In this document: positions 1 to 9,159 of the stretch, piece by piece
Layout of the letters: every line of letters starts with the position of its first letter
How positions within the stretch are numbered: the first letter of the stretch is position 1
IMG/VR virus record: IMGVR_UViG_2671181028_000018
Source of the DNA: a virus
Lineage: Duplodnaviria; Heunggongvirae; Uroviricota; Caudoviricetes
DNA: 9,159 nt
Reading direction: 5' to 3' (one strand)
Made by a program: the position numbers and the translations under genes
The notes under the pieces: generated by a model
Told to the model about the DNA's origin: nothing
The model's database searches: none
Seen by the model: the letters and a program-made list of their open reading frames with translations, nothing else

Positions 1-98
1 TCGTCGCCAGCTTCAATGGCTGTGGCTACAGCCACAGCGCCTTCTTCCCTTGTTGCCAGTTCGTCAGGAATAGCGGCGCAAATAAAGACTTTACTCAT
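1..98 (-). CDS. Hypothetical protein, N-terminal part only (gene runs off the left edge of the window)
   Basis: Minus-strand ATG at 98..96 (forward 'cat'), GAGG about 10 nt upstream (forward 'cctc' 109..112). Frame is open to position 1, translating MSKVFICAAIPDELATREEGAVAVATAIEAGD... Same orientation as the other leftward early genes. Function not recognised. Confidence 0.4.
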   Translation of the reverse strand, partial: MSKVFICAAIPDELATREEGAVAVATAIEAGD

Positions 99-377
99 TT
101 TGTTTTAACCTCATGACAGATTTAAGGATGAATAAATCCCTGCCATTGCTGGCATTTTTAATCCGTTGGTATGGCGTTAATATGGCTGGCGGGTTATCCA
201 GCCGGCGTTTCGTTATTCAGGTACAGCGATACTTTTTTAACGGGAGGCATTCACCGGGGATTTTTTGTTCGTCCCTTACCTGAATGCAGGATGACTTACT
301 GTCATAAATTCCGGTAATCACATTTTGTGGCTCACCCGTTATAAGAAAAACGGTCATCACCAGTGCAAACGCTGAAG

Positions 378-566
378 TCACTGCTGTTCTCCGATAATAC
401 CAAGTTCAAGAAGGGCAATTCTGGAAAGTATGGAATTATCATTGAGAAGATAAGGTTCATATTTTCTCATCTTAATGGCATCTTCAGTAAACTCCCGGTT
501 ACTGAGCAGAACACCAATATCAAAACAACCTTCAGACGTATTAACGTTTGGTAATAACGTTTCCAT
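378..566 (-). CDS. Hypothetical small protein (62 aa), uncertain
   Basis: Internal start of the 378..671 minus ORF: ATG at 566..564 preceded by GAGGA with a 7-nt spacer (forward 'tcctc' 574..578). Translation METLLPNVNTSEGCFDIGVLLSNREF... No recognisable family; overlaps competing plus-strand ORFs; locally AT-rich. Confidence 0.25.
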   Translation of the reverse strand: METLLPNVNTSEGCFDIGVLLSNREFTEDAIKMRKYEPYLLNDNSILSRIALLELGIIGEQQ

Positions 567-1133
567 TATCGCGTCCTCAACAATGAATTTTGTGATGCAG
601 TGCCTGGTGCCTCCAGGTGACGTTAACCAGTTAACAATTAACGCCGGATACAGAGAATCCACCCATAACACTGTTTTTGGTTTTAACTGTTCCGCGTGCG
701 CTCAGCCGCATTCACCGCATCACAAAATTCACTTTAAAAAGGGCGGCAGAGCAGTCACGGAGTAAAACTGATACCGCCAAACGTCACCAGAAAATTGATA
801 ACAGAGGGCGTTGCAGCGGGGTTGTCACTTAAGCGTATGGTCAACCTGACAACCCGGTGTCCTCAACGGGGAAGAAATAACCCCGCCATACTTACCGCCG
901 CGCCATTTCGCGGAGTGCCACAACCGGAAGCGCACGGTCGACGAAAATTTAACGACAGGCTATCTATGAACCAGCAACCTCGCCGTGCGCTTTCGCGTTA
1001 TGCTCTGACTTTTCAGAGAAATATCCTTTCAGTAAACTGTCAGTGCCGGATGTTCACCCGTGTCCGGCGCACGCACTCCACTTTACCCGTGGAGAACTCC
1101 TTAATTACCAACCTTAGCTTCGTTGGTTAGCTA

Positions 1134-1352
1134 TTAACGCGGGTATGTAATCATGCTGGCAATGCTTAATGCCGCTGCTTTTTCCAGATTGGTGATATCC
1201 TGCTCCAGAGCGGACAGATTTTCAGCCTGCTTAGCCCTGGCTTCATTGGCCCATTTCAGATCCTGCGCTGCATTAATTTTCTGGTGCATCCACTCATAAA
1301 GTTCATCATCGGTATAGTCTGGCGCGATGATGACGGGTTCTCGTTTCTGCAT
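1134..1352 (-). CDS. Hypothetical phage early-left protein (72 aa)
   Basis: ATG at 1352..1350 with a strong RBS (GAGGA, 6-nt spacer). Translation MQKREPVIIAPDYTDDELYEWMHQKINAAQDLKWANEARAKQ... Lies 29 nt downstream of the preceding leftward gene, so operon-like packing. Confidence 0.6.
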   Translation of the reverse strand: MQKREPVIIAPDYTDDELYEWMHQKINAAQDLKWANEARAKQAENLSALEQDITNLEKAAALSIASMITYPR

Positions 1353-1381
1353 ACTGATTCCTCGCGGTGCTGTTTCGCTTA

Positions 1382-1510
1382 TCAGCCGTTAGATTTTGCC
1401 GAGCTGGAAAGCGCCTGTTTAAATTCGCTGAAGCTGAGAGCTTCTTCGCCTTCGGCAAGGCCTTCGAAGTATTCTTCGTAAGCCTTTTCCATGATTGTGT
1501 CGAAATCCAT
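1382..1510 (-). CDS. Hypothetical small acidic protein (42 aa)
   Basis: ATG at 1510..1508, stop TGA at 1384..1382. Translation MDFDTIMEKAYEEYFEGLAEGEEALSFSEFKQALSSSAKSNG, strongly acidic. Its start sits 1 nt after the stop of the upstream gene (TGA-t-ATG), with GGTGGG just upstream serving as a possible RBS. Not in the ORF track because it is under 60 aa. Confidence 0.45.
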   Translation of the reverse strand: MDFDTIMEKAYEEYFEGLAEGEEALSFSEFKQALSSSAKSNG

Positions 1511-1511
1511 A

Positions 1512-1748
1512 TCACCCACCTGAATTTCTTTCCAGCCAGCGACGCGCTCCAGATTCGGTTTTAAACGTTTTGCTTTTGGTATACGTCATCGCGGTGAACG
1601 TACCGTCCTGGTTGGGGAACACGCCACATACCAGAGATTCGCTGTTGCCAAGATCGATAGTATCCATGCTGACCTCATTTCCCCTTAACGCCGGGGTAGC
1701 GGAACAAAAACCTGCTGCATAGTTATTAAAGTTGAACCCTGCCGTCAT
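1512..1748 (-). CDS. Hypothetical phage early-left protein, first gene of the leftward operon (78 aa, or 51 aa from an internal start)
   Basis: ORF-track ORF. Two plausible starts, each with an RBS: ATG 1748..1746 (GAGG, 9-nt spacer) and ATG 1667..1665 (GAGG, 5-nt spacer; product MDTIDLGNSESLVCGVFPNQDGTFTAMTYTKSKTFKTESGARRWLERNSGG). Size and position resemble the small ydaF/ydaG-type genes next to Rac-like repressors, but sequence identity was not verified. Confidence 0.45.
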   Translation of the reverse strand: MTAGFNFNNYAAGFCSATPALRGNEVSMDTIDLGNSESLVCGVFPNQDGTFTAMTYTKSKTFKTESGARRWLERNSGG

Positions 1749-1848
1749 GTTCTTACGCCTCGGGCTGGCTACTTAACCCCTGACCACTGCCTGGTAACTC
1801 GAGGTATTGCCCTGTATTGTGTGGGACGGGATGGGTTGGTATGGGAAA

Positions 1849-1877
1849 ACTATAGGAAATGCCTAATTACTTGTCAA
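1849..1877 (-). promoter_or_regulatory. pL-like leftward early promoter
   Basis: Read on the minus strand: -35 TTGACA (1877..1872), 17-nt spacer AGTAATTAGGCATTTCC, -10 TATAGT (1854..1849). An operator site lies inside the spacer and another abuts the -35. Points toward the leftward small-gene operon. Confidence 0.6.
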
Positions 1878-1915
1878 TAGGCTATGCCTAATAATTTGGG
1901 CGCGACCTAATAGGT
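1853..1915. promoter_or_regulatory. OL-like operator cluster (three sites about 25 bp apart)
   Basis: TAGGAAATGCCTA (1853..1865) and TAGGCTATGCCTA (1878..1890) both fit TAGG-N5-CCTA. A third dyad, ACCTAATAGGT (1905..1915), sits at the same spacing but with the half-sites in swapped order. The 21-bp stretch 1871..1891 is an exact reverse complement of 2516..2536. Confidence 0.6.
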
Positions 1916-1949
1916 GATGGTTTGTGGGAGAGGTAGTAGGAGTTAACTA

Positions 1950-1971
1950 ACGGGAACTAGGAATTTCCCGT
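1950..1971 (-). terminator. Hairpin downstream of the repressor gene, possible weak terminator
   Basis: 7-bp stem ACGGGAA / TTCCCGT with an 8-nt loop, 15 to 36 nt past the repressor stop codon. No clear U-tract on either strand, so termination efficiency is doubtful. Confidence 0.25.
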
Positions 1972-1985
1972 CGGACCATATAAGT

Positions 1986-2462
1986 TTAAGTTCCTGTCTT
2001 GGTGATGTTCTGGCTTTTCCGTTTTGATTCTTGATTTTTCAGATAGTTAGCTACCTTCATTTCCATTGCGGCAATGTAGGCGCGAACGTCATGATCAACC
2101 CAACTAGGCTCCGTAGCATTTCCAGATAAGAGGAAAGCCACAATTGCTCTTTTTTCATCAGAGGCGGCTTGATAAAGGCTGTTTATGTCTAAAAGTTCAC
2201 TTTTTGTATCTGAAGTGGATGGGGTTGGTATGGGGTATTCGTTAAGCCCCCAATGCTCTGGACCAACCACATCAGAAAAGAAACGCCATAGTTCTGGAAG
2301 TTTGTCTTTACTTATCGAACCTTTCTTAATCCAGTCATGGATTGATGGTGGTTGGACTTTGAAATGACGTGCGATTTCCGCCTTTGATTTGACGGCTCCT
2401 GATGCAATTTTTTTGTTAATGGCCTGCTCTATCGCTCGGCCTAAGTCTTTACCACTAAGCAT
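1986..2462 (-). CDS. Prophage repressor, HTH type without a peptidase S24 domain (RacR-like, 158 aa)
   Basis: ORF-track ORF. N-terminal HTH-like segment KSKAEIARHFKVQPPSIHDWIKKG. No LexA/CI-type autocleavage motif seen. Divergent from the cro-like gene and flanked on both sides by operator clusters. AGGAG lies 11 nt upstream of ATG 2462..2460. Confidence 0.8.
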   Translation of the reverse strand: MLSGKDLGRAIEQAINKKIASGAVKSKAEIARHFKVQPPSIHDWIKKGSISKDKLPELWRFFSDVVGPEHWGLNEYPIPTPSTSDTKSELLDINSLYQAASDEKRAIVAFLLSGNATEPSWVDHDVRAYIAAMEMKVANYLKNQESKRKSQNITKTGT

Positions 2463-2491
2463 TGCTTAATAGTCTCCTATGCGCATCGCGT

Positions 2492-2555
2492 TAGGCAATC
2501 CCTACTCTCGATGTGTTAGGCATAGCCTATTGACAATTGTATTAGGCTAAGCCTA
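2492..2555. promoter_or_regulatory. OR-like operator cluster (three sites about 25 bp apart)
   Basis: TAGGCAATCCCTA (2492..2504), TAGGCATAGCCTA (2517..2529) and TAGGCTAAGCCTA (2543..2555), all TAGG-N5-CCTA. The third is part of a 15-bp dyad TTAGGC-TAA-GCCTAA with perfect 6-bp arms. Confidence 0.65.
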
Positions 2556-2559
2556 ATAT
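2530..2559 (+). promoter_or_regulatory. pR-like rightward early promoter
   Basis: -35 TTGACA (2530..2535), 18-nt spacer, -10 TAATAT (2554..2559). The -10 overlaps operator 2543..2555 and the -35 abuts operator 2517..2529. Predicted transcript start is about 20 nt before the ydaS-like ATG. Confidence 0.6.
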
Positions 2560-2586
2560 TGTTGCGTGTTTTTTGGAGTTCATTCG

Positions 2587-2910
2587 ATGAAAAAAGATAA
2601 CTATTCATTCAAACGAGCTTGTGCTGTTGTCGGTGGGCAATCAGCAATGGCTAGGCTTTTAGGTGTATCTCCTCCAAGCGTAAATCAATGGATCAAAGGT
2701 GTACGTCAGTTGCCTGCTGAGAGATGTCCTGCGATTGAACGAGCAACAAAAGGTGGTGTCCTGTGTGAAGAACTTCGTCCTGATGTTGATTGGACATACT
2801 TACGACGCTCGTCATGTTATTCGCAGAATATGTCGATGAAGCAACCAAATGACGAAAACGATCATACCCGAAGCATCAAGAGGCAAATGATTCATGAAAA
2901 TCAAACATGA
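2587..2910 (+). CDS. ydaS: Cro-like HTH regulator of the YdaS family
   Basis: ATG 2587 with GGAG 8 nt upstream. The ORF track's 2566 start is a GTG upstream of the predicted transcript start. Motif SFKRACAVVGGQSAMARLLGVSPPSVNQWIKGVRQLPAERCPAIERAT is characteristic of YdaS-type proteins as I recall them. First gene after pR, divergent from the repressor. Confidence 0.8.
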   Translation: MKKDNYSFKRACAVVGGQSAMARLLGVSPPSVNQWIKGVRQLPAERCPAIERATKGGVLCEELRPDVDWTYLRRSSCYSQNMSMKQPNDENDHTRSIKRQMIHENQT

Positions 2911-3319
2911 GCACATCCGCATGGCGATGAATGCCTGGGCATACCCTGATGGTGAGAAAGTTCCTGCAGCTGAAATAGCCCGGACTTATTTCGAACTGGG
3001 GATGACGTTCCCTGAACTGTACGACGACAGCCATCCGGAAGCCCTGGCCCGTAATACACAGAAAATTTTCCGTTGGCTGGATAAAGACACCCCTGATGCT
3101 GTTGAAAAAATTCAGGCTCTGTTACCGGCGATCGAAAAGGCAATGCCGCCTCTGCTGGTGGCCCGTATGCGCAGTCACAGCTCTGAGTATTACCGGGAGA
3201 TTGTCGAACGGCGGGATCGGCTGGTGAAGGATGTCGACGATTTTGTTGCGTCAGCGGTTGTTTTGTATGACCAGATGAATCGCGGCGGCCCGGCAGGGAA
3301 TGCTGTGGTGATGCACTAA
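2894..3319 (+). CDS. ydaT: YdaT-family protein (CII-like regulator, historically called a toxin)
   Basis: ATG 2894 with AAGAGG 10 nt upstream; overlaps the ydaS-like gene by 17 nt. Begins MKIKHEHI..., 141 aa, immediately downstream of the ydaS-like gene as in the Rac immunity region. Confidence 0.75.
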   Translation: MKIKHEHIRMAMNAWAYPDGEKVPAAEIARTYFELGMTFPELYDDSHPEALARNTQKIFRWLDKDTPDAVEKIQALLPAIEKAMPPLLVARMRSHSSEYYREIVERRDRLVKDVDDFVASAVVLYDQMNRGGPAGNAVVMH

Positions 3320-3341
3320 AAGCACGGTGTTCGGGGGTTTT

Positions 3342-4304
3342 ATGAGCAGCAAGCTTCATGGTCTTGTCTGGGAAGGGTGCGCCTTCACCGGCATGATCTT
3401 ATCCAGGGTGGCGGTTATGGCCCGTCTTGCAGACTACAGCAATGACGAGGGTGTGTCATGGCCTGCCATTGAAACTATCCGGCGTCAGATCGGTGCAAGA
3501 AGTGAATCCACAGTGAAATCGGCTATTGCAGAACTGGCGAAAGAGGGCTGGCTGACGAAGGAAGAGCGTAAGGTCGGTGGGCGTAATGTAAGCAATATCT
3601 ATCGGCTTAATGTGGAAAAACTCGAAGCAGCAGCTGCGGCGGCGCGTGAGTCATATAAACCGAAAAGAAAAATTAGCCCGGCAAAAAATGACCAGTTAAC
3701 AGTTGACCCGTCAAATATTGCCCCCTCAACGGTTGACCCGTCAAATTTTGATGGATCAACTGTTGATAAAAAACTGCCGATTAGGGGGGCGATGATTGAC
3801 CCCGATCCGTCAGTATTAAAACCTGATCCGTCAGATAAAAGATCTTCTTGTCCGGACGCTTCGCAACCGGACCCGCAGACGGCTGAACAGGATTTTTTAA
3901 CCCGACACCCTGACGCGGTTGTGTTCAGTGCGAAAAAACGCCAGTGGGGAAGTCAGGAAGATTTGGTGTGCGCACAGTGGATCTGGGGACGAATCGTGAG
4001 TCTTTACGAGCAGGCGGCCAGCTATGATGGCGAGATCACTAGACCGAAAGAACCCAACTGGACAGCATGGGCCAATGACGTTCGCACAATGCGGATGCTG
4101 GATGGCAGAACTCACAGACAAATTTGTGAAATGTTTGGGCGTCTCCAGCGGGATTCGTTCTGGGTAAAAAACATCATGAGTCCGGCAAAACTCCGGGAAA
4201 AATGGGATGAACTGGTTATCCGCCTGGGGCGTTCGCCTGCGCAGCGTTGCGTGAATCACATTTCTGAACCGGACACTGAAATTCCGCCGGGCTTCAGGGG
4301 GTAA
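3342..4304 (+). CDS. Replication-initiator-like protein with N-terminal winged-helix/HTH domain (lambda O / YdaU position)
   Basis: ORF-track ORF 3327..4304; preferred start is ATG 3342 (GGGGG 4 nt upstream) rather than GTG 3327. N-terminus LVWEGCAFTGMILSRVAVMARLADYSNDEGVSWPAIETIRRQIGARSESTVKSAIAELAKEGWL looks like a phage replication-protein HTH. A repeat-encoded linker (TVDPSN... PDPS...) separates it from the C-terminal domain. Confidence 0.7.
   Translation: MSSKLHGLVWEGCAFTGMILSRVAVMARLADYSNDEGVSWPAIETIRRQIGARSESTVKSAIAELAKEGWLTKEERKVGGRNVSNIYRLNVEKLEAAAAAARESYKPKRKISPAKNDQLTVDPSNIAPSTVDPSNFDGSTVDKKLPIRGAMIDPDPSVLKPDPSDKRSSCPDASQPDPQTAEQDFLTRHPDAVVFSAKKRQWGSQEDLVCAQWIWGRIVSLYEQAASYDGEITRPKEPNWTAWANDVRTMRMLDGRTHRQICEMFGRLQRDSFWVKNIMSPAKLREKWDELVIRLGRSPAQRCVNHISEPDTEIPPGFRG
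3694..3834 (+). repeat. Iteron-like direct repeats inside the replication-initiator gene (candidate origin)
   Basis: GTTGACCCGTCAAAT occurs exactly twice (3702..3716 and 3732..3746, period 30 bp); the core TTGAC-CC-GTCAA is a near-dyad. GATCCGTCAG occurs twice (3804..3813 and 3825..3834, period 21 bp). A more A/T-rich stretch follows (3834..3850). Confidence 0.4.
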
Positions 4305-4344
4305 GTGTTAATTTCTGGTCATGAGGTAACTTTCAGGAGGGCTT

Positions 4345-4767
4345 GTGGCAAAAGTTTTTACACAAGAAGAGCGGGAAAAAATTAAAGGGCAGGTTGTTGA
4401 ACTCGTACGCCAGAGTGGGCGCGAGACGTTACGACAACTGGAAACTAAAACTGGGGCAACAAGATATCTGATGAGCGTTCTGGCCAGAGAGCTGGTTGCC
4501 AGTGGCGATGTATACAATTCTGGCTACGGGTTATTCCCGTCTGAACAGGCTCGTAAAGACTGGCAAAATGCCCGCAAAAAACTCTCAAGGGCAAAGCTGA
4601 AGAAACCATCTGCGGTTGATCCGGACCTTATCTGGTCATTACCTGATGGAGAAATACGTCGTTACGACAGGCATCATAATATAATTTGTACTGAGTGTCG
4701 TAAAAGCGAAGTTATGCAGCGCATATTGTCGTTTTATCAGGGGAATGTTCGGTATTTATTAAAGTGA
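4345..4767 (+). CDS. Hypothetical protein (140 aa), function unknown
   Basis: ORF-track ORF with a GTG start at 4345 and AGGAGG 4 nt upstream. Basic, with a Cys/His-containing C-terminus (HHNIICTECRK). Sits where a helicase-loader partner would be expected, but no DnaC/P-like motifs seen. The 3' end becomes A/T-rich. Confidence 0.5.
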   Translation: MAKVFTQEEREKIKGQVVELVRQSGRETLRQLETKTGATRYLMSVLARELVASGDVYNSGYGLFPSEQARKDWQNARKKLSRAKLKKPSAVDPDLIWSLPDGEIRRYDRHHNIICTECRKSEVMQRILSFYQGNVRYLLK

Positions 4768-5076
4768 CGAGATTAAAATGCATTAGTTAAGATGTGAATT
4801 GACATTTTGTGGCACAGGATAGAGCTATCGTGGTTGTCCGCTTTGTGCCAGAAGCGGAAGTTAGAAATTATCTGCCAACCGATAAGATGGCTGCCTAAGT
4901 CGTAGCGATTCAGCACTGTTTTAGCGGCGCTCGATTGCAAAGTCGTGCTTTGCTGACTTGCGATTGTGCTCTTTACGAGCAAAGCTTTCAGGTATAGTAA
5001 GTGCTAACTGTAGTGTAAAATTATAGGGATAGATGAAGAAAACAACGAGGCTTTAGCTAATCTTTGCAGTTGTGTC

Positions 5077-5085
5077 TGCTATAAT
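5077..5085 (+). promoter_or_regulatory. Extended -10 promoter candidate for the NTPase gene
   Basis: TGcTATAAT (TG at 5077..5078, TATAAT at 5080..5085) matches the extended -10 consensus; no good -35 at 17-bp spacing. About 80 nt upstream of ATG 5167, which has AAGGG 6 nt upstream. Confidence 0.35.
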
Positions 5086-5166
5086 AAGGCGAAATTTTAT
5101 CTGCATGATTTTGTTTGATTAACTCCGAAAGCCAGCTCTCTCGGTGAAGATTGGGAAGGGATATCA

Positions 5167-8100
5167 ATGAGTGATGATAGCTATAAATTTCAAAAGTTAA
5201 CGCCGTTCAGCGATGTTGAGCTGGGTGTATATAAAAATGCGATAGATTTTGTTTTTGCCAATAACGATCTAAAAAATGTTGCGATATCAGGGCAATATAG
5301 CGCAGGAAAAAGTAGTCTTATCGAATCCTATAAGAAAAGTCATTCAAATATAAAGTTTGTTCATATCTCACTTGCTCATTTCAGATCGATTGAGGAAGCT
5401 GAAACTAATGAACCAAGTAAAGATATAAATGAAACCGCGTTAGAAGGTAAAGTTCTTAACCAGTTAATTCACCAAATTAATGCTGATGATATTCCCCAGA
5501 CACATTTTAAAGTAAAGAAAAAAATAAAAACTAACAACATTGTGATAAACACCATCTTTACGGTGTTATTTATCGCCATGATACTACATATCACGCTATT
5601 TAATAAGTGGGAAAAGTTTGTTTCACTTTTATCTGAAGGTAATATAAAGACACTACTTACATTATCAACTAAATACGATACGCTTTTAATTAGTGGGTTT
5701 ATATGTACTATCCTATCTTGTATTTTCATTTACAAGTTAATAAAAACCCAAAAGAATCGTAATGTTCTTAAGAAAATAAATTTACAGGGTAATGAAATAG
5801 AGATTTTTGAAGAAAGTAACGAGTCTTATTTCGATAGATATTTAAATGAAGTATTGTACCTTTTCGAGAACGTTGATGCTGATGCCATTGTTTTTGAAGA
5901 CATGGACCGTTTTAATAGTAATAACATCTTTGAACGTCTTCATGAGGTTAACAGACTGGTTAATATTCAACGGGACACAGCAGGGCACAAGAAATCGACG
6001 TTACGTTTTATTTACTTGCTTCGTGATGATATCTTCATTTCGAAGGATAGAACCAAATTCTTTGATTATATCATTCCAGTTATTCCTGTTGTTGATAGTT
6101 CTAACTCTTACGATCAGTTTATCACACATTTTGATGGTGGTGGTATTCTCAAGTTGTTCAATGAAAGATTTCTACAAGGGATGTCTTTATATATTGATGA
6201 TATGAGAATATTGAAGAATATTTATAACGAATTTCAAATTTATTATAACAAATTAAACACGACAGAACTTGACTGTAATAAAATGTTGGCCATTATTGCC
6301 TATAAGAATATTTTCCCAAGAGATTTTAGTGAGTTGCAACTTAATCAAGGTATGGTTTATACCATATTTAGTGAAAAAGACAACCTTATTATTGAAGAAA
6401 TAAAGAAAATAGAAAAAGATATTAGAGATAGAAAAAAAGAGATTGAGGCAATCAATGATGAAATACTCAACTCTAGTCAGGAGGTTGATGCTATATACGA
6501 TAAGGAATTATCTAGATATAATAATCATCCTCACTATAATCAGGCTGAGAAAGCTGATATAGCAAAGAGAAGGGCGGCTAGAAAAGAAAGTGTTGAAAAT
6601 AAATTTAATGGTAAAATAGAAGAAATTAATGAGCTTATATCAAGATCAAGAGAAAGTTTGGTTGATTCTAGAAACAAAAGACTTAAAGAAGTAATAACTA
6701 GAGAAAACATTGATGAAATATTTAAACTCACCTATACCAATGAAATTGGAGAGGAAAGAGACTTTAATGAAATAAAAAGCAGTGAGCATTTTGACTTGCT
6801 TAAATACCTTATTCGTGATGGTTATATTGATGAAACCTATACCGACTATATGACCTATTTTTATGAAAATAGCCTGAGTCGAATTGATAAGATGTTTTTA
6901 CGCAGCATTACCGATCAAAAAGGCAAAGAGTTCACTTATCAACTCAAGAACCCCAAGCTGGTCGTTGCCCGCCTTCGAGAAGTGGATTTTGAACAGGAAG
7001 AGGCGCTTAATTTTGATTTATTAGCTTATCTGCTTCAAACGCCAGCCCAGGTAAACTTAATAAAACGTTTATTCAAACAACTAAGAAAAGATAGAAGAGT
7101 TGAGTTTATTCGTGGTTACTTTGAAACTGAGAGGGCTCAGCCTGTCTTCATTAATCGATTAAATACACAGTGGCCTGAGTTTTTTTCTTATGCGCTGACA
7201 GAGAGTGAATTTTCTGCTGATTGGGTTAAACTCTACTCTATAGGCACGTTTTATTATTCTGCCAATGACGCCATCGAGGCCATTAATATTGATGATTGTC
7301 TGACTGATTACATCTCTGATTCGGCAGGTTATTTAGCAATATCAGAACCGAAGGTTGACAAATTAATTAGTGGTTTTAAGTTGCTTAACGTCTCTTTTGT
7401 CAGTATTAAATTTGAAAACGCAAATAAAGTACTCTTTGATGCGGTTTACCAGCATTCACTTTATGATATTAATTTTTCCAACCTGACCTTAATGCTGAGT
7501 AAGGTTTACACGCTTAATAGTGAAGATGATATTCGCCATAAGAACTATACACTAGTGATGTCACAACCTGATTCTCCCTTGGCTAGTTATGTTAATAACC
7601 ATATTAGGGACTATCTGGATATGGTTTTATCTAGTTGTGATGGTTCAATCGTGGATGATGAATCCATTGTTTTATCCGTTCTTAATAATGAGGGAATATC
7701 TGATGAACAAAAAGGCCAGTATATAAACGCTTTGCAAACTTTCGTGACATCTCTGAGTGAGGTTGAGAGCGAATCTTTATGGTCATCTTTGTTGGATAAA
7801 GATAGAGCAGTGTGCTCTGAGGAAAATATTGTCTCTTATTTTGAACATGTTGATGGACTGGATGACTCACTTATCGAATTTATCAATAGAACTGATGTAG
7901 ACCTGAATTTTCAAAATATTAATATTGATAACGAGCTTAAAGGTAAATTATTTAAATCGATTGTTATCTGTAATGATTTATCAAATGATAAATATGAAAA
8001 ATTAATTTGCTCACTAAATATTATTTGTAAAACATCCTTTAGCGCTAGTAATATCGCGAGTGATAAGTTCAAAATATTAGTGGATAAAAATATTATTCGT

Positions 8101-8799
8101 ATGAATGTTGCGCCACTTAATTTCATACGAGATAACTATTCAGAGCAACTTTCCTATTATATTCATAAGAATATCAGGGCATACGTTGAATTAATGACGA
8201 TTGATAACTTTATTTTGGATGAGGCTATATCAATACTTTCTTGGAAAGTTGATGATGATTTGAAAGTTAAGCTACTCGAGTTTGTTAAAACTCCGTTGGC
8301 TATTTATAGTAAGAATTACTCTCAGGTCGTTAATGACTATATTTTAGAAAATAATTTTAAACCAGATGAACTTCTAATCTTGACGTCATCTTATAAAACT
8401 TGGGGAACCTCTACTCAGTCGCTCATCTTGAGTCGAGCAATACAGGATATATCAGCATTGATAGCAAGTCCTAATGATGTTTCTGAACCGTTACTAAAAA
8501 ACCTGTTTGTCGCAGAGGGACTGAATATGCAGAATAAAATAGCACTGCTAATCGCTTTGTTGCCGGGTAAGGATTTGAGTAAGACGACTTGCAAAGAGTA
8601 TCTTGATCTGCTTGGTTTATCGGAGTTCAGTAAAATTTTGGGGCGAGGCAAACCTAAAATTGAAGTTGATTCAACTAATCAAAGTTTATTAACAGCATTA
8701 AGAGATAACCACTTCTTCTCTGATTTTGAGGTGGATAATGAAAATCCCACTTATTATAAAATAACAAGGCGGCGCTCTATGTTTGGCTCAGATACATAG
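5167..8799 (+). CDS. Large P-loop NTPase with transmembrane insertion in the NTPase domain (KAP-type / YobI-like / Tmn-like), 1210 aa
   Basis: ORF-track ORF. Walker A GQYSAGKS (5290..5313). Two hydrophobic helices between the Walker motifs: IVINTIFTVLFIAMILHITLF (about 5536..5601) and LLISGFICTILSCIFIYKLI (about 5680..5745). Walker B IVFEDMDR (5887..5910), matching the hhhhDDxDR form typical of KAP NTPases. A Lys/Glu-rich coiled-coil-like stretch (roughly residues 400 to 520) and a long C-terminal region without recognisable motifs follow. Codon usage is strongly A/T-biased, unlike the flanks. Confidence 0.9.
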   Translation: MSDDSYKFQKLTPFSDVELGVYKNAIDFVFANNDLKNVAISGQYSAGKSSLIESYKKSHSNIKFVHISLAHFRSIEEAETNEPSKDINETALEGKVLNQLIHQINADDIPQTHFKVKKKIKTNNIVINTIFTVLFIAMILHITLFNKWEKFVSLLSEGNIKTLLTLSTKYDTLLISGFICTILSCIFIYKLIKTQKNRNVLKKINLQGNEIEIFEESNESYFDRYLNEVLYLFENVDADAIVFEDMDRFNSNNIFERLHEVNRLVNIQRDTAGHKKSTLRFIYLLRDDIFISKDRTKFFDYIIPVIPVVDSSNSYDQFITHFDGGGILKLFNERFLQGMSLYIDDMRILKNIYNEFQIYYNKLNTTELDCNKMLAIIAYKNIFPRDFSELQLNQGMVYTIFSEKDNLIIEEIKKIEKDIRDRKKEIEAINDEILNSSQEVDAIYDKELSRYNNHPHYNQAEKADIAKRRAARKESVENKFNGKIEEINELISRSRESLVDSRNKRLKEVITRENIDEIFKLTYTNEIGEERDFNEIKSSEHFDLLKYLIRDGYIDETYTDYMTYFYENSLSRIDKMFLRSITDQKGKEFTYQLKNPKLVVARLREVDFEQEEALNFDLLAYLLQTPAQVNLIKRLFKQLRKDRRVEFIRGYFETERAQPVFINRLNTQWPEFFSYALTESEFSADWVKLYSIGTFYYSANDAIEAINIDDCLTDYISDSAGYLAISEPKVDKLISGFKLLNVSFVSIKFENANKVLFDAVYQHSLYDINFSNLTLMLSKVYTLNSEDDIRHKNYTLVMSQPDSPLASYVNNHIRDYLDMVLSSCDGSIVDDESIVLSVLNNEGISDEQKGQYINALQTFVTSLSEVESESLWSSLLDKDRAVCSEENIVSYFEHVDGLDDSLIEFINRTDVDLNFQNINIDNELKGKLFKSIVICNDLSNDKYEKLICSLNIICKTSFSASNIASDKFKILVDKNIIRMNVAPLNFIRDNYSEQLSYYIHKNIRAYVELMTIDNFILDEAISILSWKVDDDLKVKLLEFVKTPLAIYSKNYSQVVNDYILENNFKPDELLILTSSYKTWGTSTQSLILSRAIQDISALIASPNDVSEPLLKNLFVAEGLNMQNKIALLIALLPGKDLSKTTCKEYLDLLGLSEFSKILGRGKPKIEVDSTNQSLLTALRDNHFFSDFEVDNENPTYYKITRRRSMFGSDT

Positions 8800-8820
8800 C
8801 ATTATGTATTTTTCTACAGT

Positions 8821-8848
8821 TTGGGCACTTTTATAGTGCCCAATTTTT
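8821..8848 (+). terminator. Rho-independent terminator of the NTPase gene
   Basis: Perfect 9-bp stem TTGGGCACT (8821..8829) / AGTGCCCAA (8835..8843), 5-nt loop TTTAT, then TTTTT (8844..8848); starts 22 nt after the TAG stop (8797..8799). Confidence 0.65.
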
Positions 8849-9159
8849 ACGCTGAAACTTACGCAGATAATCTGACTTTTTCCCAGTTGACGAGTACACC
8901 TAGGTGTTCGTGAAGCCCTCAGTGTGTTGGGACAGATGCGAGCGTCCGCTCTTCGCTCAAAGCGGCCTAGAAGGTTAGCTTGCGTCGGACTTGGCGTATT
9001 TAAAGAAGTGCTGGTGGTGACTGGTTGTTGTGTTCCATTTCTACAGAACAAAATCACAGAAACTATACCCAATAGTTGGATTTGCCCCTATATTTCCAGA
9101 CATCTGTTATCACTTAACCCATTACAAGCCCGCTGCCGCAGATATTCCCGTGGCGAGCG

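Follow-up and report, generated by a model that had tools for sequence, protein, structure and literature searches.

What is the long AT-rich block that follows the replication genes of an Escherichia coli prophage, how did it come to be there, and did it cost the prophage part of its replication module? The window analysed is the whole stretch of 9,159 nt. Its host element is a Rac/Qin-type lambdoid prophage, as indicated by RacR, YdaS, YdaT, an HTH/DnaD_N replication protein and DUF977. The features discussed below are collected in Table 1.

The AT-rich block and the slot that holds it

The sequence-only reading had described the segment from about 4770 to 8850 as more A/T-rich than its flanks. 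Computed GC contents agree, with 33.7% for 4768-8850, 47.6% for 1-4767 and 48.2% for 8851-9159 (two-proportion z = 13.5). In non-overlapping 300-nt windows, values range from 26 to 38% within the block and from 39 to 54% in the flanks, with no overlap (Mann-Whitney p = 1.3e-5). The codons AAA, AAT, ATT, GAT and TTA, said to dominate the coding sequence, make up 25% of the ORF and 15.6% of the neighbouring phage genes, and the GC3 of the ORF is 30%. The island is thus real, with ends other than those first proposed. As 4768-4985 is of ordinary composition (45.4% GC), the first ~200 nt of the proposed interval are not AT-rich and the AT-rich core narrows to 4986-8850 (33.0% GC). Maximum-likelihood change points fall at ~4980 and ~8880, and the mobile unit, as delimited by the sites analysed below, spans 4845-8951 (~4.1 kb).

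The block contains one real ORF, and the RefSeq record likewise annotates no other CDS there. It is preceded by a leader of 399 nt and followed by a terminator with a 9-bp stem (8821-8843; DNA fold -10.3 kcal/mol, z = -5.3), in line with the single gene, ~400-bp leader and strong terminator originally noticed. The candidate promoter motif TGnTATAAT is kept in nine of nine contexts, among them an Enterobacter copy of 88% identity; it is a consensus match only, and a standard -35/-10 promoter scan did not pick it up. Promoter, Shine-Dalgarno and terminator sequences are all conserved over the nine contexts. The leader is better conserved (94.5-97.2% identity across contexts) than third codon positions (91.6%), and its GC-normal frame is 96% conserved across genera, above synonymous sites. 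The R-like repeat that ends this frame (4959-4985) is 70% identical and alone is not significant. The cassette (4845-8951) would form one transcription unit, in which an extended -10 promoter and a conserved 5' leader precede the single ORF and an intrinsic terminator follows it. Together, these data support a compositionally foreign single-gene insertion (33% versus 48% GC) that is autonomous in transcription by its predicted signals.

Table 1. Features of the window, with positions counted from its first nucleotide
Feature	Position	Strand	Basis or remark
DUF977 gene (ydaW/lygF/'Ren-like')	4345..4767	+	Pfam DUF977, E = 8.5e-30
L site, imperfect palindrome GTCCGCTTT-GTGCCAG-AAGCGGA	4836..4858	+	Pattern match, 0 expected by chance in the window
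GC-normal frame of the cassette leader	4859..4985	+	4845-4985 = 48.9% GC; ends in a weak R-like copy
Candidate extended -10 promoter TGcTATAAT	5077..5085	+	Sequence reading
Shine-Dalgarno-like GGGAAGGG	5153..5160	+	7 nt ahead of the ATG; conserved
Predicted YobI/Tmn-family transmembrane P-loop NTPase, 1210 aa	5167..8799	+	Pfam, PADLOC, hhalign
Walker A motif GQYSAGKS, aa 42-49	5290..5313	+	G47/K48 align to Tmn-25 G66/K67
Two predicted transmembrane helices, aa ~122-146 and ~170-193	5530..5745	+	Hydropathy peaks
Predicted intrinsic terminator, stem-loop TTGGGCAC-TTTTATA-GTGCCCAA then TTTTT	8821..8850	+	Conserved in 9/9 contexts
GC-normal 3' frame of the cassette	8851..8943	+	8851-8951 = 51.5% GC
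R site, imperfect palindrome GTCCGCTC-TTCGCTCA-AAGCGGC	8944..8966	+	Pattern match
Conserved non-coding right flank, upstream of hokD in uninterrupted prophages	8952..9077	+	E. coli genome comparison
End of an IS2 copy in the right flank	9078..9159	-	Strain-specific; homology to other prophages stops at 9082

The cassette lies just downstream of the Rac-like replication block, as the sequence-only reading had it. The last conserved gene of that block, coding for DUF977, forms the left flank of the slot and is intact, and it is conserved in prophages with other cargo. The right flank occurs in 1263 of 5426 E. coli genomes irrespective of cargo and is followed by hokD in CD45, UTI89, 99COLEC and A20; here it runs into IS2, whose transposase CDS is annotated from position 9088 on. 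Alignment with related prophages located the slot and revealed other occupants: between DUF977 and hokD, other prophages and phages carry SMODS+SLATT, QueH, hypothetical genes, an acetyltransferase or ~230 bp only. The last case is that of strain A20, where no gene lies between L and R and the slot is nearly empty; the cassette thus separates genes that are near-adjacent in related phages. In ML775, the slot holds other cargo without an L or R site, and the break falls within DUF977. Because the slot flanks are conserved in prophages with other or almost no cargo, the cassette replaces accessory cargo and not core genes. We consider it very probable that the AT-rich block is an accessory cassette, or 'moron', in a variable DUF977-hokD cargo slot, carrying a Tmn/YobI gene as an exchangeable unit bounded by L and R.

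A different account was that the insertion displaced or truncated ancestral replication genes, notably the helicase loader, and left the module crippled. The window indeed lacks a DnaC-like gene (ydaV), as had been pointed out, and the related PCP06238 harbours ydaV (DnaC-like ATPase) and DUF1627 between its replication gene and DUF977. However, that position maps to ~4308-4336 of the window, ~500 nt upstream of the cassette and ahead of DUF977. The DUF977 gene, itself undamaged, separates the initiator-like gene from the cassette, and neither flank of the slot is disrupted. ML775, 99.5% identical over 1-4746, is devoid of the cassette and has the same loader-less module, so the absence of the loader is independent of the cassette. 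In the isolated phages Evi, Tritos and mEp460 and in many prophages, a 'replisome organizer' is likewise followed by DUF977, with no loader. Displacement of a loader is thus highly improbable, and the low GC does not reflect disruption of phage genes.

The cassette gene and its relatives

The gene was found in 32 of 5426 complete E. coli genomes, in single copy in each, and it is 92-100% identical across Escherichia, Shigella, Klebsiella, Serratia, Yersinia, Pectobacterium, Enterobacter and Morganella. Its GC content is ~33% in hosts of 39-62% GC: the enterobacterial clade lies 17-28 GC points below its flanks, compared with a median of 6 points in other hosts. The next relatives belong to Firmicutes, with 40-55% identity and collinearity from end to end. 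As the family is AT-rich everywhere and its nearest non-enterobacterial members are those of Firmicutes, these comparisons indicate that the low GC of the gene reflects its origin in a low-GC lineage.

The predicted product matches the full 363-position profile of Pfam YobI-ATPase (PF20693) over residues 22-398, with 410.9 bits for a cut-off of 27 bits (E = 8e-123). An hhalign comparison with a plasmid Tmn ('anti-phage transmembrane ATPase') extends the homology from residues 5-1185 of the query to 22-1245 of Tmn, including the C-terminal proximal and distal helical arms (Prob 100, E = 5e-57, 1116 columns). The homology of the arms, which are highly diverged from those of the tested Tmn, is remote: BLAST and the PADLOC HMM reach the N-terminal third only. 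BLAST similarity to characterized Tmn is restricted to residues 4-403 (overall identity ~21%), the PADLOC Tmn match (E = 4.9e-67) covers only about a third of the profile length, and no model was matched in an NCBIfam profile search of the 1210-aa protein.

G66 and K67 of Tmn-25, to which the Walker A residues align, are needed for defence (PMC13001434), and D245 of the Walker B motif (IVFEDMD, aa 241-247) aligns to D276. The 1210-aa protein retains each of the nine NTPase residues at which mutation eliminates Tmn-25 defence (PMC13001434). Across 63 family members, Y231, D245, R248, N266, K297, F298 and R347 show 100% conservation. R472 and L777 are conserved too; F506 is left unaligned, and Y541 pairs with R469. 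The two predicted membrane helices, placed by a hydropathy estimate and not by a dedicated topology predictor, fall between Walker A and Walker B, inside the NTPase domain. By homology, the product is thus a full-length YobI/Tmn-family member of a divergent clade. The published Tmn census excluded matches whose profile coverage was below 50% (PMC13001434), so with its coverage of about a third the gene probably falls outside it. It adds to the family a divergent, prophage-borne clade whose recent spread takes in at least eight enterobacterial genera.

Tmn/YobI is a known single-gene anti-phage system, for which activity, a decameric membrane complex and a phage-protein trigger are known for clades I and VIII only (PMC13001434). 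We infer the defence activity, trigger and physiological outcome of the present protein from these relatives. Its P-loop domain, split by the two membrane helices and followed by ~800 residues of helical 'arms', would most likely make it a sensor-effector NTPase in the inner membrane of the lysogen. The C-terminal arms would recognize a protein of the infecting phage and ATP turnover would increase; the cell, driven to a non-productive state, would stop phage spread.

The cassette ends and the movement of the cassette

A search of the junctions for repeats and target sites turned up the specific boundary sites L and R. They are ~23 bp long and consist of a conserved 7-9-bp core (GTGCCAG in L, TCGCTCA in R) flanked by inverted arms of 7 bp, and the two types always occur in the order L then R. 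The L site is predicted to form a DNA hairpin (-6.7 kcal/mol, z = -3.3); the arms of L/R sites do not covary, and hence a hairpin function stays putative.

In every foreign context, homology to the window extends from 4835/4841 to 8950/8968, with identity falling to 74% at the 5' arm of L and to 66% at the core and 3' arm of R. At L, the crossover lies between 4844 and 4845, such that the 5' arm varies with context and the core and 3' arm move as part of the cassette; prophages with other cargo diverge immediately 3' of L. At R, it lies at ~8951/8952: the 5' arm accompanies the cassette unchanged, and the core and 3' arm are context-dependent or lost beside an IS. Break points inside L and R, at the same arm/core boundary, were found in ten contexts across six genera. 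The island is also known with a BCCT transporter in place of the cassette, its break lying within L, and a second cargo obeys the same break rule. In viral contigs, we identified 43 L...R pairs with 33 distinct cargos. The L...R cargos (at least 33 others) are mostly AT-rich and often defence-related, with CBASS, DarG, TIR and PDC candidates. In 14 of 15 composites, the start of R precedes that of L by exactly 42 nt. A small tyrosine recombinase is encoded in just 1-2 of 130 loci, and none is linked to the sites.

The L/R pairs suggest a two-site cassette-exchange system. Most likely, the segment between L and R would be replaced by paired crossovers, L with L and R with R, in the conserved cores. 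For a trans-acting site-specific recombinase as the exchange enzyme, the chances are close to even; for exchange by short-homology recombination, they are slightly below even. Only tentatively do we propose that L and R are heterospecific targets of a trans-acting recombination system that would swap cassettes among prophages, islands and plasmids across Enterobacterales, and, with similar caution, that the fixed R-42 nt-L composite would join neighbouring cassettes.

Alternatively, ordinary homologous or relaxed (Red/RecET-type) recombination alone might account for the exchanges, with L and R as passive 'linker' patches, for instance insulators or RNA stem-loops. This explanation has a substantial probability, short of one half. 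E. coli prophages share the block 4242-9082 (DUF977, cassette and right flank) at 99.3% and differ in their upstream modules, which is lambdoid mosaicism, and the prophage codes for a large RecE-type exonuclease. Furthermore, the sites have no associated recombinase gene, their arm variants assort independently, and plain homologous recombination would also place crossovers in the only sequence that is shared. Nevertheless, the shared patches are just ~23 bp long and of fixed architecture, and passive patches fit poorly with the constant order of two site types, with the regular spacing of the composites and with a break at one and the same arm/core boundary in so many contexts. As for the gene, a YobI-family ATPase might have a role other than anti-phage, in prophage addiction or exclusion or in a housekeeping-like process inherited from Firmicutes, its AT-richness being that of recent horizontal cargo. 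The divergence of the C-terminal arms from tested Tmn and the non-defence cargos found in the slot or between L and R (QueH, a HAD hydrolase, a glyoxalase and the island BCCT transporter) are consistent with such a role, and we know of no demonstrated function for B. subtilis YobI. We deem it unlikely, however, given the full-length homology, the conservation of all catalytic residues required for Tmn defence and the wealth of known defence genes in L...R cassettes. In other genomes, moreover, the gene adjoins an ABC-three-component system, a NACHT gene and methylase and HNH genes.

Comparison with known systems

Like the Tmn of clades Ia/Ib of Enterobacteriaceae (Tmn-25; Wu et al. 2026 preprint, PMC13001434), the cassette encodes a single-gene YobI-like P-loop NTPase whose Walker A and B motifs flank two predicted membrane helices and whose C-terminal arms are long and helical. 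It differs in size (1210 versus ~1270 aa) and sequence, and in location: those clades reside on F-type or IncI plasmids, whereas the present one is found in prophage slots and chromosomal islands. It resembles B. subtilis YobI and the Firmicutes YobI family (PF20693) in its length of ~1200 aa, AT-rich gene and collinearity, but the Firmicutes loci are devoid of the L/R-bounded, GC-normal frame of the enterobacterial clade.

Phage morons as defined by Juhala and Hendrix, extra DNA of deviant composition that lies among conserved phage genes and brings a promoter and terminator of its own, are a close parallel. So are the defence hotspots of P2-like phages and P4-like satellites (Rousset et al. 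2022, PMC9122126), in which related elements carry differing, often defensive cargo. In contrast with both, the slot described here lies between DUF977 and hokD in Rac/Qin-type lambdoid prophages, and its cargo ends are defined by sequence and common to islands and plasmids of other genera.

Three known types of element were considered and rejected. An integron gene cassette does not fit, as L is followed by GTTAGAA with no inverse core and no RYYYAAC/GTTRRRY boxes, and the 33-kb locus has no intI. The Xer site dif is GGTGCGCATAA-TGTATA-TTATGTTAAAT, 28 bp with XerC and XerD arms about a 6-bp centre; by inspection, the 7-bp arms of L/R (GTCCGCT/AGCGGAC) are unlike those of a dif/pdif module. 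In an IS200/IS605-type element, subterminal hairpins would lie wholly within the element and the cleavage sites outside them, but here the breaks fall inside both palindromes, and the L 5' arm and the 3' portion of R are part of the context.

The cassette ends matter more than the gene, since they are reproducible, defined by sequence and common to dozens of mostly defensive cargos. They provide a simple sequence handle for new cargo genes and a concrete, testable hypothesis for the movement of defence genes between mobile elements. In integron attC cassettes and Acinetobacter pdif modules, as here, short imperfect palindromes delimit cargo units, with or without a promoter, that recur in many contexts, arrays have a composite site between units, and defence cargo is common; they have one site per unit, whereas L/R cassettes have two different ones. 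If the exchange reading is true, L and R would represent a natural form of two-site 'cassette exchange' that parallels integrons and pdif modules, with a cargo largely of anti-phage defence.

Composition and provenance of the AT-rich block

The AT-rich island that a sequence-only reading had placed at positions 4768-8850 was borne out, with refined limits. GC content is 33.7% in that segment, compared with 47.6% at positions 1-4767 and 48.2% at 8851-9159 (z = 13.5 for inside versus flanks). When non-overlapping 300-nt windows were considered, the 12 inside the block had 26-38% GC and the 15 outside 39-54%, with disjoint ranges (Mann-Whitney p = 1.3e-5). Likelihood change points of composition were found near 4980 and 8880, and as the 218 nt directly 3' of the DUF977 gene have 45% GC, the AT-rich core corresponds to 4986-8850, at 33.0% GC. 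The codons reported by the same reading to dominate the coding sequence (AAA, AAT, ATT, GAT and TTA) account for 25% of the ORF and 15.6% of the adjacent phage genes. A single ORF fills the block, in keeping with the claim of exactly one gene, and no other RefSeq annotation is present there. The terminator and T-run that follow the gene are strong, as had also been proposed. Minus-strand ORFs at 4773-4982 and 8788-9072 span the cassette ends, match no family and are unannotated, and we rejected them as spurious.

A standard -35/-10 scan detected no promoter in the leader, and a candidate extended -10 element was spotted there by eye and by conservation. The leader also harbours a short stem just 5' of the Shine-Dalgarno sequence, which pairs perfectly over 7 bp in cassette copies elsewhere (CCGAGAG...CTCTCGG); a role as regulatory hairpin is conceivable.

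The window corresponds to positions 2167911-2177069 of Escherichia coli DEC9B (NZ_CP074760.1), aligning from end to end at essentially 100% identity (99.97% in a local re-alignment), and is part of a lambdoid prophage whose integration site adjoins potC. Genes in this region run in the order int, xis, exonuclease, dicB, DicF, ydfC/B/A, racR, ydaS-like, ydaT, HTH/DnaD_N replication protein, DUF977, the large ORF and IS2. A search of the whole window against Rfam at E <= 1 returned DicF and a weak STnc100 match only, and nothing in the leader or in the L and R sites described below. The last ~20 residues of the replication protein weakly match the C-terminus of the primosomal protein DnaT (NCBIfam E = 0.004), and its homologues are labelled 'primosomal protein I' in phage records.

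Features of the window and their positions
Feature	Position	Strand	Description
dicB	~378-566	-	
STnc100-like match	534-743		weak, under its Rfam gathering score; adjoins DicF
DicF antisense sRNA	741-792	-	Rfam 76.7 bits, E = 5e-16
Replication protein gene	3327-4304		
L site	4836-4858		GTCCGCTTT-GTGCCAG-AAGCGGA
5' UTR stem	5124-5143		CCGAAAG...CTCTCGG
Large ORF	5167-8799		1210 aa
Terminator	8821-8843		stem, followed by T-run
R site	8944-8966		GTCCGCTC-TTCGCTCA-AAGCGGC
IS2, window part	9078-9159		right flank of the cargo slot

Of 5426 complete E. coli genomes, 32 have the gene, in a single copy each, and 31 of these copies are at least 99% identical. At the protein level, 92-100% identity was found in Shigella, Klebsiella, Serratia, Yersinia, Pectobacterium, Enterobacter and Morganella. 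No phage record of the collection carries the gene at the DNA level. We looked across hosts for the same gene with host-like composition and found none, the enterobacterial copies always being at ~33% GC regardless of host GC. The next relatives, in Clostridia and Bacilli, are 40-55% identical over the full length; their genes have 30% GC, only ~6 points under their own flanks. The composition of the block is thus explained by a gene that descends from a low-GC lineage and has spread recently.

Limits of the cassette and its cargo slot

Alignment with related prophages, which had been suggested for locating the junctions, revealed that prophages with other cargo are homologous to the window up to a palindrome on either side and diverged in between. 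These two related imperfect palindromes, L and R, are each composed of a 5' arm, a core and a 3' arm, and the chance expectation of their pattern in the window is zero. Outside prophages, the cassette begins and ends at the same palindromes: on an E. coli island next to an ABC-three-component system, on an island near ldtA, on Klebsiella and Yersinia islands and in a Serratia chromosome. Blastn end points in eight foreign contexts fall at 4835-4841 on the left and 8950-8968 on the right, and a Logan contig represents a tenth context with the same junction pattern. Taken together, six non-identical copies match the window at 74% within the L 5' arm, then at 95.5% beginning with the L core, 94.5-97% over the leader, 94.9% over the ORF and 96.7% through to the R 5' arm; immediately past that arm the figure falls to 66%. 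These drops in identity indicate that the L 5' arm and the R core and 3' arm belong to the context. The moving unit is 4845-8951, an exchangeable cassette, and the insertion had been called rightly. Comparison of the leaders of different cassettes revealed nothing common beyond the L site.

In the Klebsiella and Yersinia copies, an IS element directly follows the R 5' arm and replaces the rest of R: an IS110-family transposase gene starts there in Klebsiella (L020:11784-13051) and an rve-type IS in Yersinia (L026:11790-13003). Elements of this sort may target R for insertion. The island that carries the cassette in strain 2018-02-2CC has a BCCT transporter and a DUF2254 protein instead in NCTC11121 and on a plasmid, and homology between the two versions stops after GTCCGCTTTGTGCCA. 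DEC9B harbours a third L-like site ~3.2 kb past the window end (L001:24379-24405), with the same arms and a different core (GTCCGCTAAGAGCAAGAAGCGGAAGTTGG). This GAGCAAG-core variant also comes after the R site in E. coli A30 and Serratia oryzae.

The right-hand non-coding stretch of the slot (~8952-9082) was found in 1263 of the 5426 E. coli genomes. We compared prophages that share this stretch and the DUF977 gene and differ in the cargo in between: two unknown genes in UTI89, SMODS and SLATT in 99COLEC, unknown genes in Combat13F7, several units including a small tyrosine recombinase in YJ1, an acetyltransferase in the isolated phage Evi, and only ~230 bp with no gene in A20. In PCP06238, QueH lies behind a degenerate L site and the conserved right-hand stretch is absent. 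Next comes hokD in uninterrupted prophages; in DEC9B, IS2 is inserted at ~9078 (L001:21088-23930), followed by an ISEsa1 fragment, and parts the cassette from a block of ydfW, flxA, relBE and hokD. Twenty E. coli copies of the cassette occupy the slot, and the immunity and replication modules of the prophages concerned are of at least three different kinds; the remaining copies are elsewhere.

The proposal that the cassette displaced a helicase loader proved wrong. PCP06238 is 98.5% identical to window 455-4308 and then carries, between the replication gene and DUF977, ydaV (a DnaC-like ATPase) and DUF1627, about 1.5 kb that the window lacks at ~4308-4336. The place of the loader is thus upstream of an intact DUF977 gene. 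Moreover, ML775, 99.5% identical over 1-4746, has neither cassette nor loader, and the loader-less arrangement recurs in many prophages and phages of the 'replisome organizer + DUF977' type.

Generality of the L and R sites and mobility

A 76-nt composite, R then L, is present in 1578 of the 5426 E. coli genomes, 850 of which contain 80% or more of it; none of the records among the matches listed annotates it. R starts exactly 42 nt before L in 14 of 15 composites, only three phage records of the collection contain the composite, and Rfam gave nothing credible for it. A degenerate L pattern matched at least 120 viral contigs, some possibly by chance, at least ~73% of the matches carrying unselected flanking features; an earlier pattern with a fixed AAGTT tail had given nine loci, probably mostly chance. 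An R site lies 565-5856 nt downstream of 43 L sites, compared with ~0.1 expected as estimated from the degeneracy of the R pattern. The 42 usable intervals fall into 33 cargo clusters, mostly of 33-40% GC, whose largest proteins include a CBASS cyclase with E1-E2, SMODS, a TIR effector, DarG, the PADLOC candidates S06, S35 and S51, AAA_13, RelA_SpoT, a trypsin-like protease, DUF3800, a HAD hydrolase and a glyoxalase. A second cargo, known in two contexts, follows the same junction rule as the cassette. Only 26 of 127 L sites are found after a DUF977 gene, and L and R are thus not peculiar to this slot. An operon for a TonB-dependent receptor and an ABC transporter is flanked by R-L composites in UTI89 (L107) and SYNB1934 (L108), so that the cargo between such sites also includes units of several genes with no role in defence. 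Many Logan short-read contigs with the protein measure no more than 4.16-4.6 kb, little besides the cassette with a few extra bases, as would be expected if assemblies broke at the repeated L and R sites.

For mobility, we favour paired exchange of L with L and R with R. Crossovers within the sole shared sequence would equally be expected from homologous recombination, and a dedicated enzyme behind the exchange is conceivable but somewhat doubtful. No recombinase linked to the sites was found at 130 L-site loci. A 200-aa tyrosine recombinase, consisting of the catalytic domain only, lies within L/R arrays in a Nissle-derived strain (L108:2339-2941) and in the YJ1 slot (L109:7047-7649); its gene occurs in 863 of the 5426 genomes and is rare at other L-site loci (one or two of the 130), and we dropped it as a candidate. 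The predicted circle or tandem junction, in which the R 5' arm would abut the L core, was absent from the viral contigs, and the ML775 cargo has neither L nor R. The stems showed no covariation (C/G 183, C/A 52, T/G 32, T/A 2), so a hairpin function of L and R is putative. The cassette ends, defined by palindromes and recurring across genera, are what merits follow-up.

Relationship of the cassette protein to Tmn

The protein matches the Pfam YobI-like P-loop NTPase over the entire profile (E = 8e-123), and the PADLOC Tmn model over profile positions 27-474 of 1273 only (E = 4.9e-67). Tblastn against plasmids identified, on F-type and IncI plasmids, the 'anti-phage transmembrane ATPase', ~28% identical and aligned over residues 4-403 only. 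No NCBIfam model and no PDB sequence matched. Using hhalign, we compared an alignment of 63 family members with a plasmid Tmn protein of 1273 residues (L112), in which every residue reported for Tmn-25 is present at the numbering of Wu et al. (PMC13001434). The homology extends from one end to the other (Prob 100, E = 5e-57, 1116 columns aligned, 21% identity). Tmn-25 loses its defence when any of nine NTPase-domain residues is mutated (Wu et al., PMC13001434), and all nine, here G47, K48, Y231, D245, R248, N266, K297, F298 and R347, are present and invariant in the family. Walker A is separated from Walker B by two hydrophobic helices, at residues ~122-146 and ~170-193. Together, the end-to-end homology, conserved residues and helices show that this is a genuine but divergent Tmn/YobI-family protein.

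Tmn forms a decamer in the membrane, with C-terminal arms that recognise a protein of the phage, RIIB in the case of T2; binding raises ATP turnover and drives the cell into plasmolysis, which blocks phage spread (Wu et al., PMC13001434). By homology, the cassette protein would act along the same general lines, in response to another trigger. The object is of an ordinary kind, a defence moron in a prophage hotspot, and its product adds a new and divergent member to the Tmn family.
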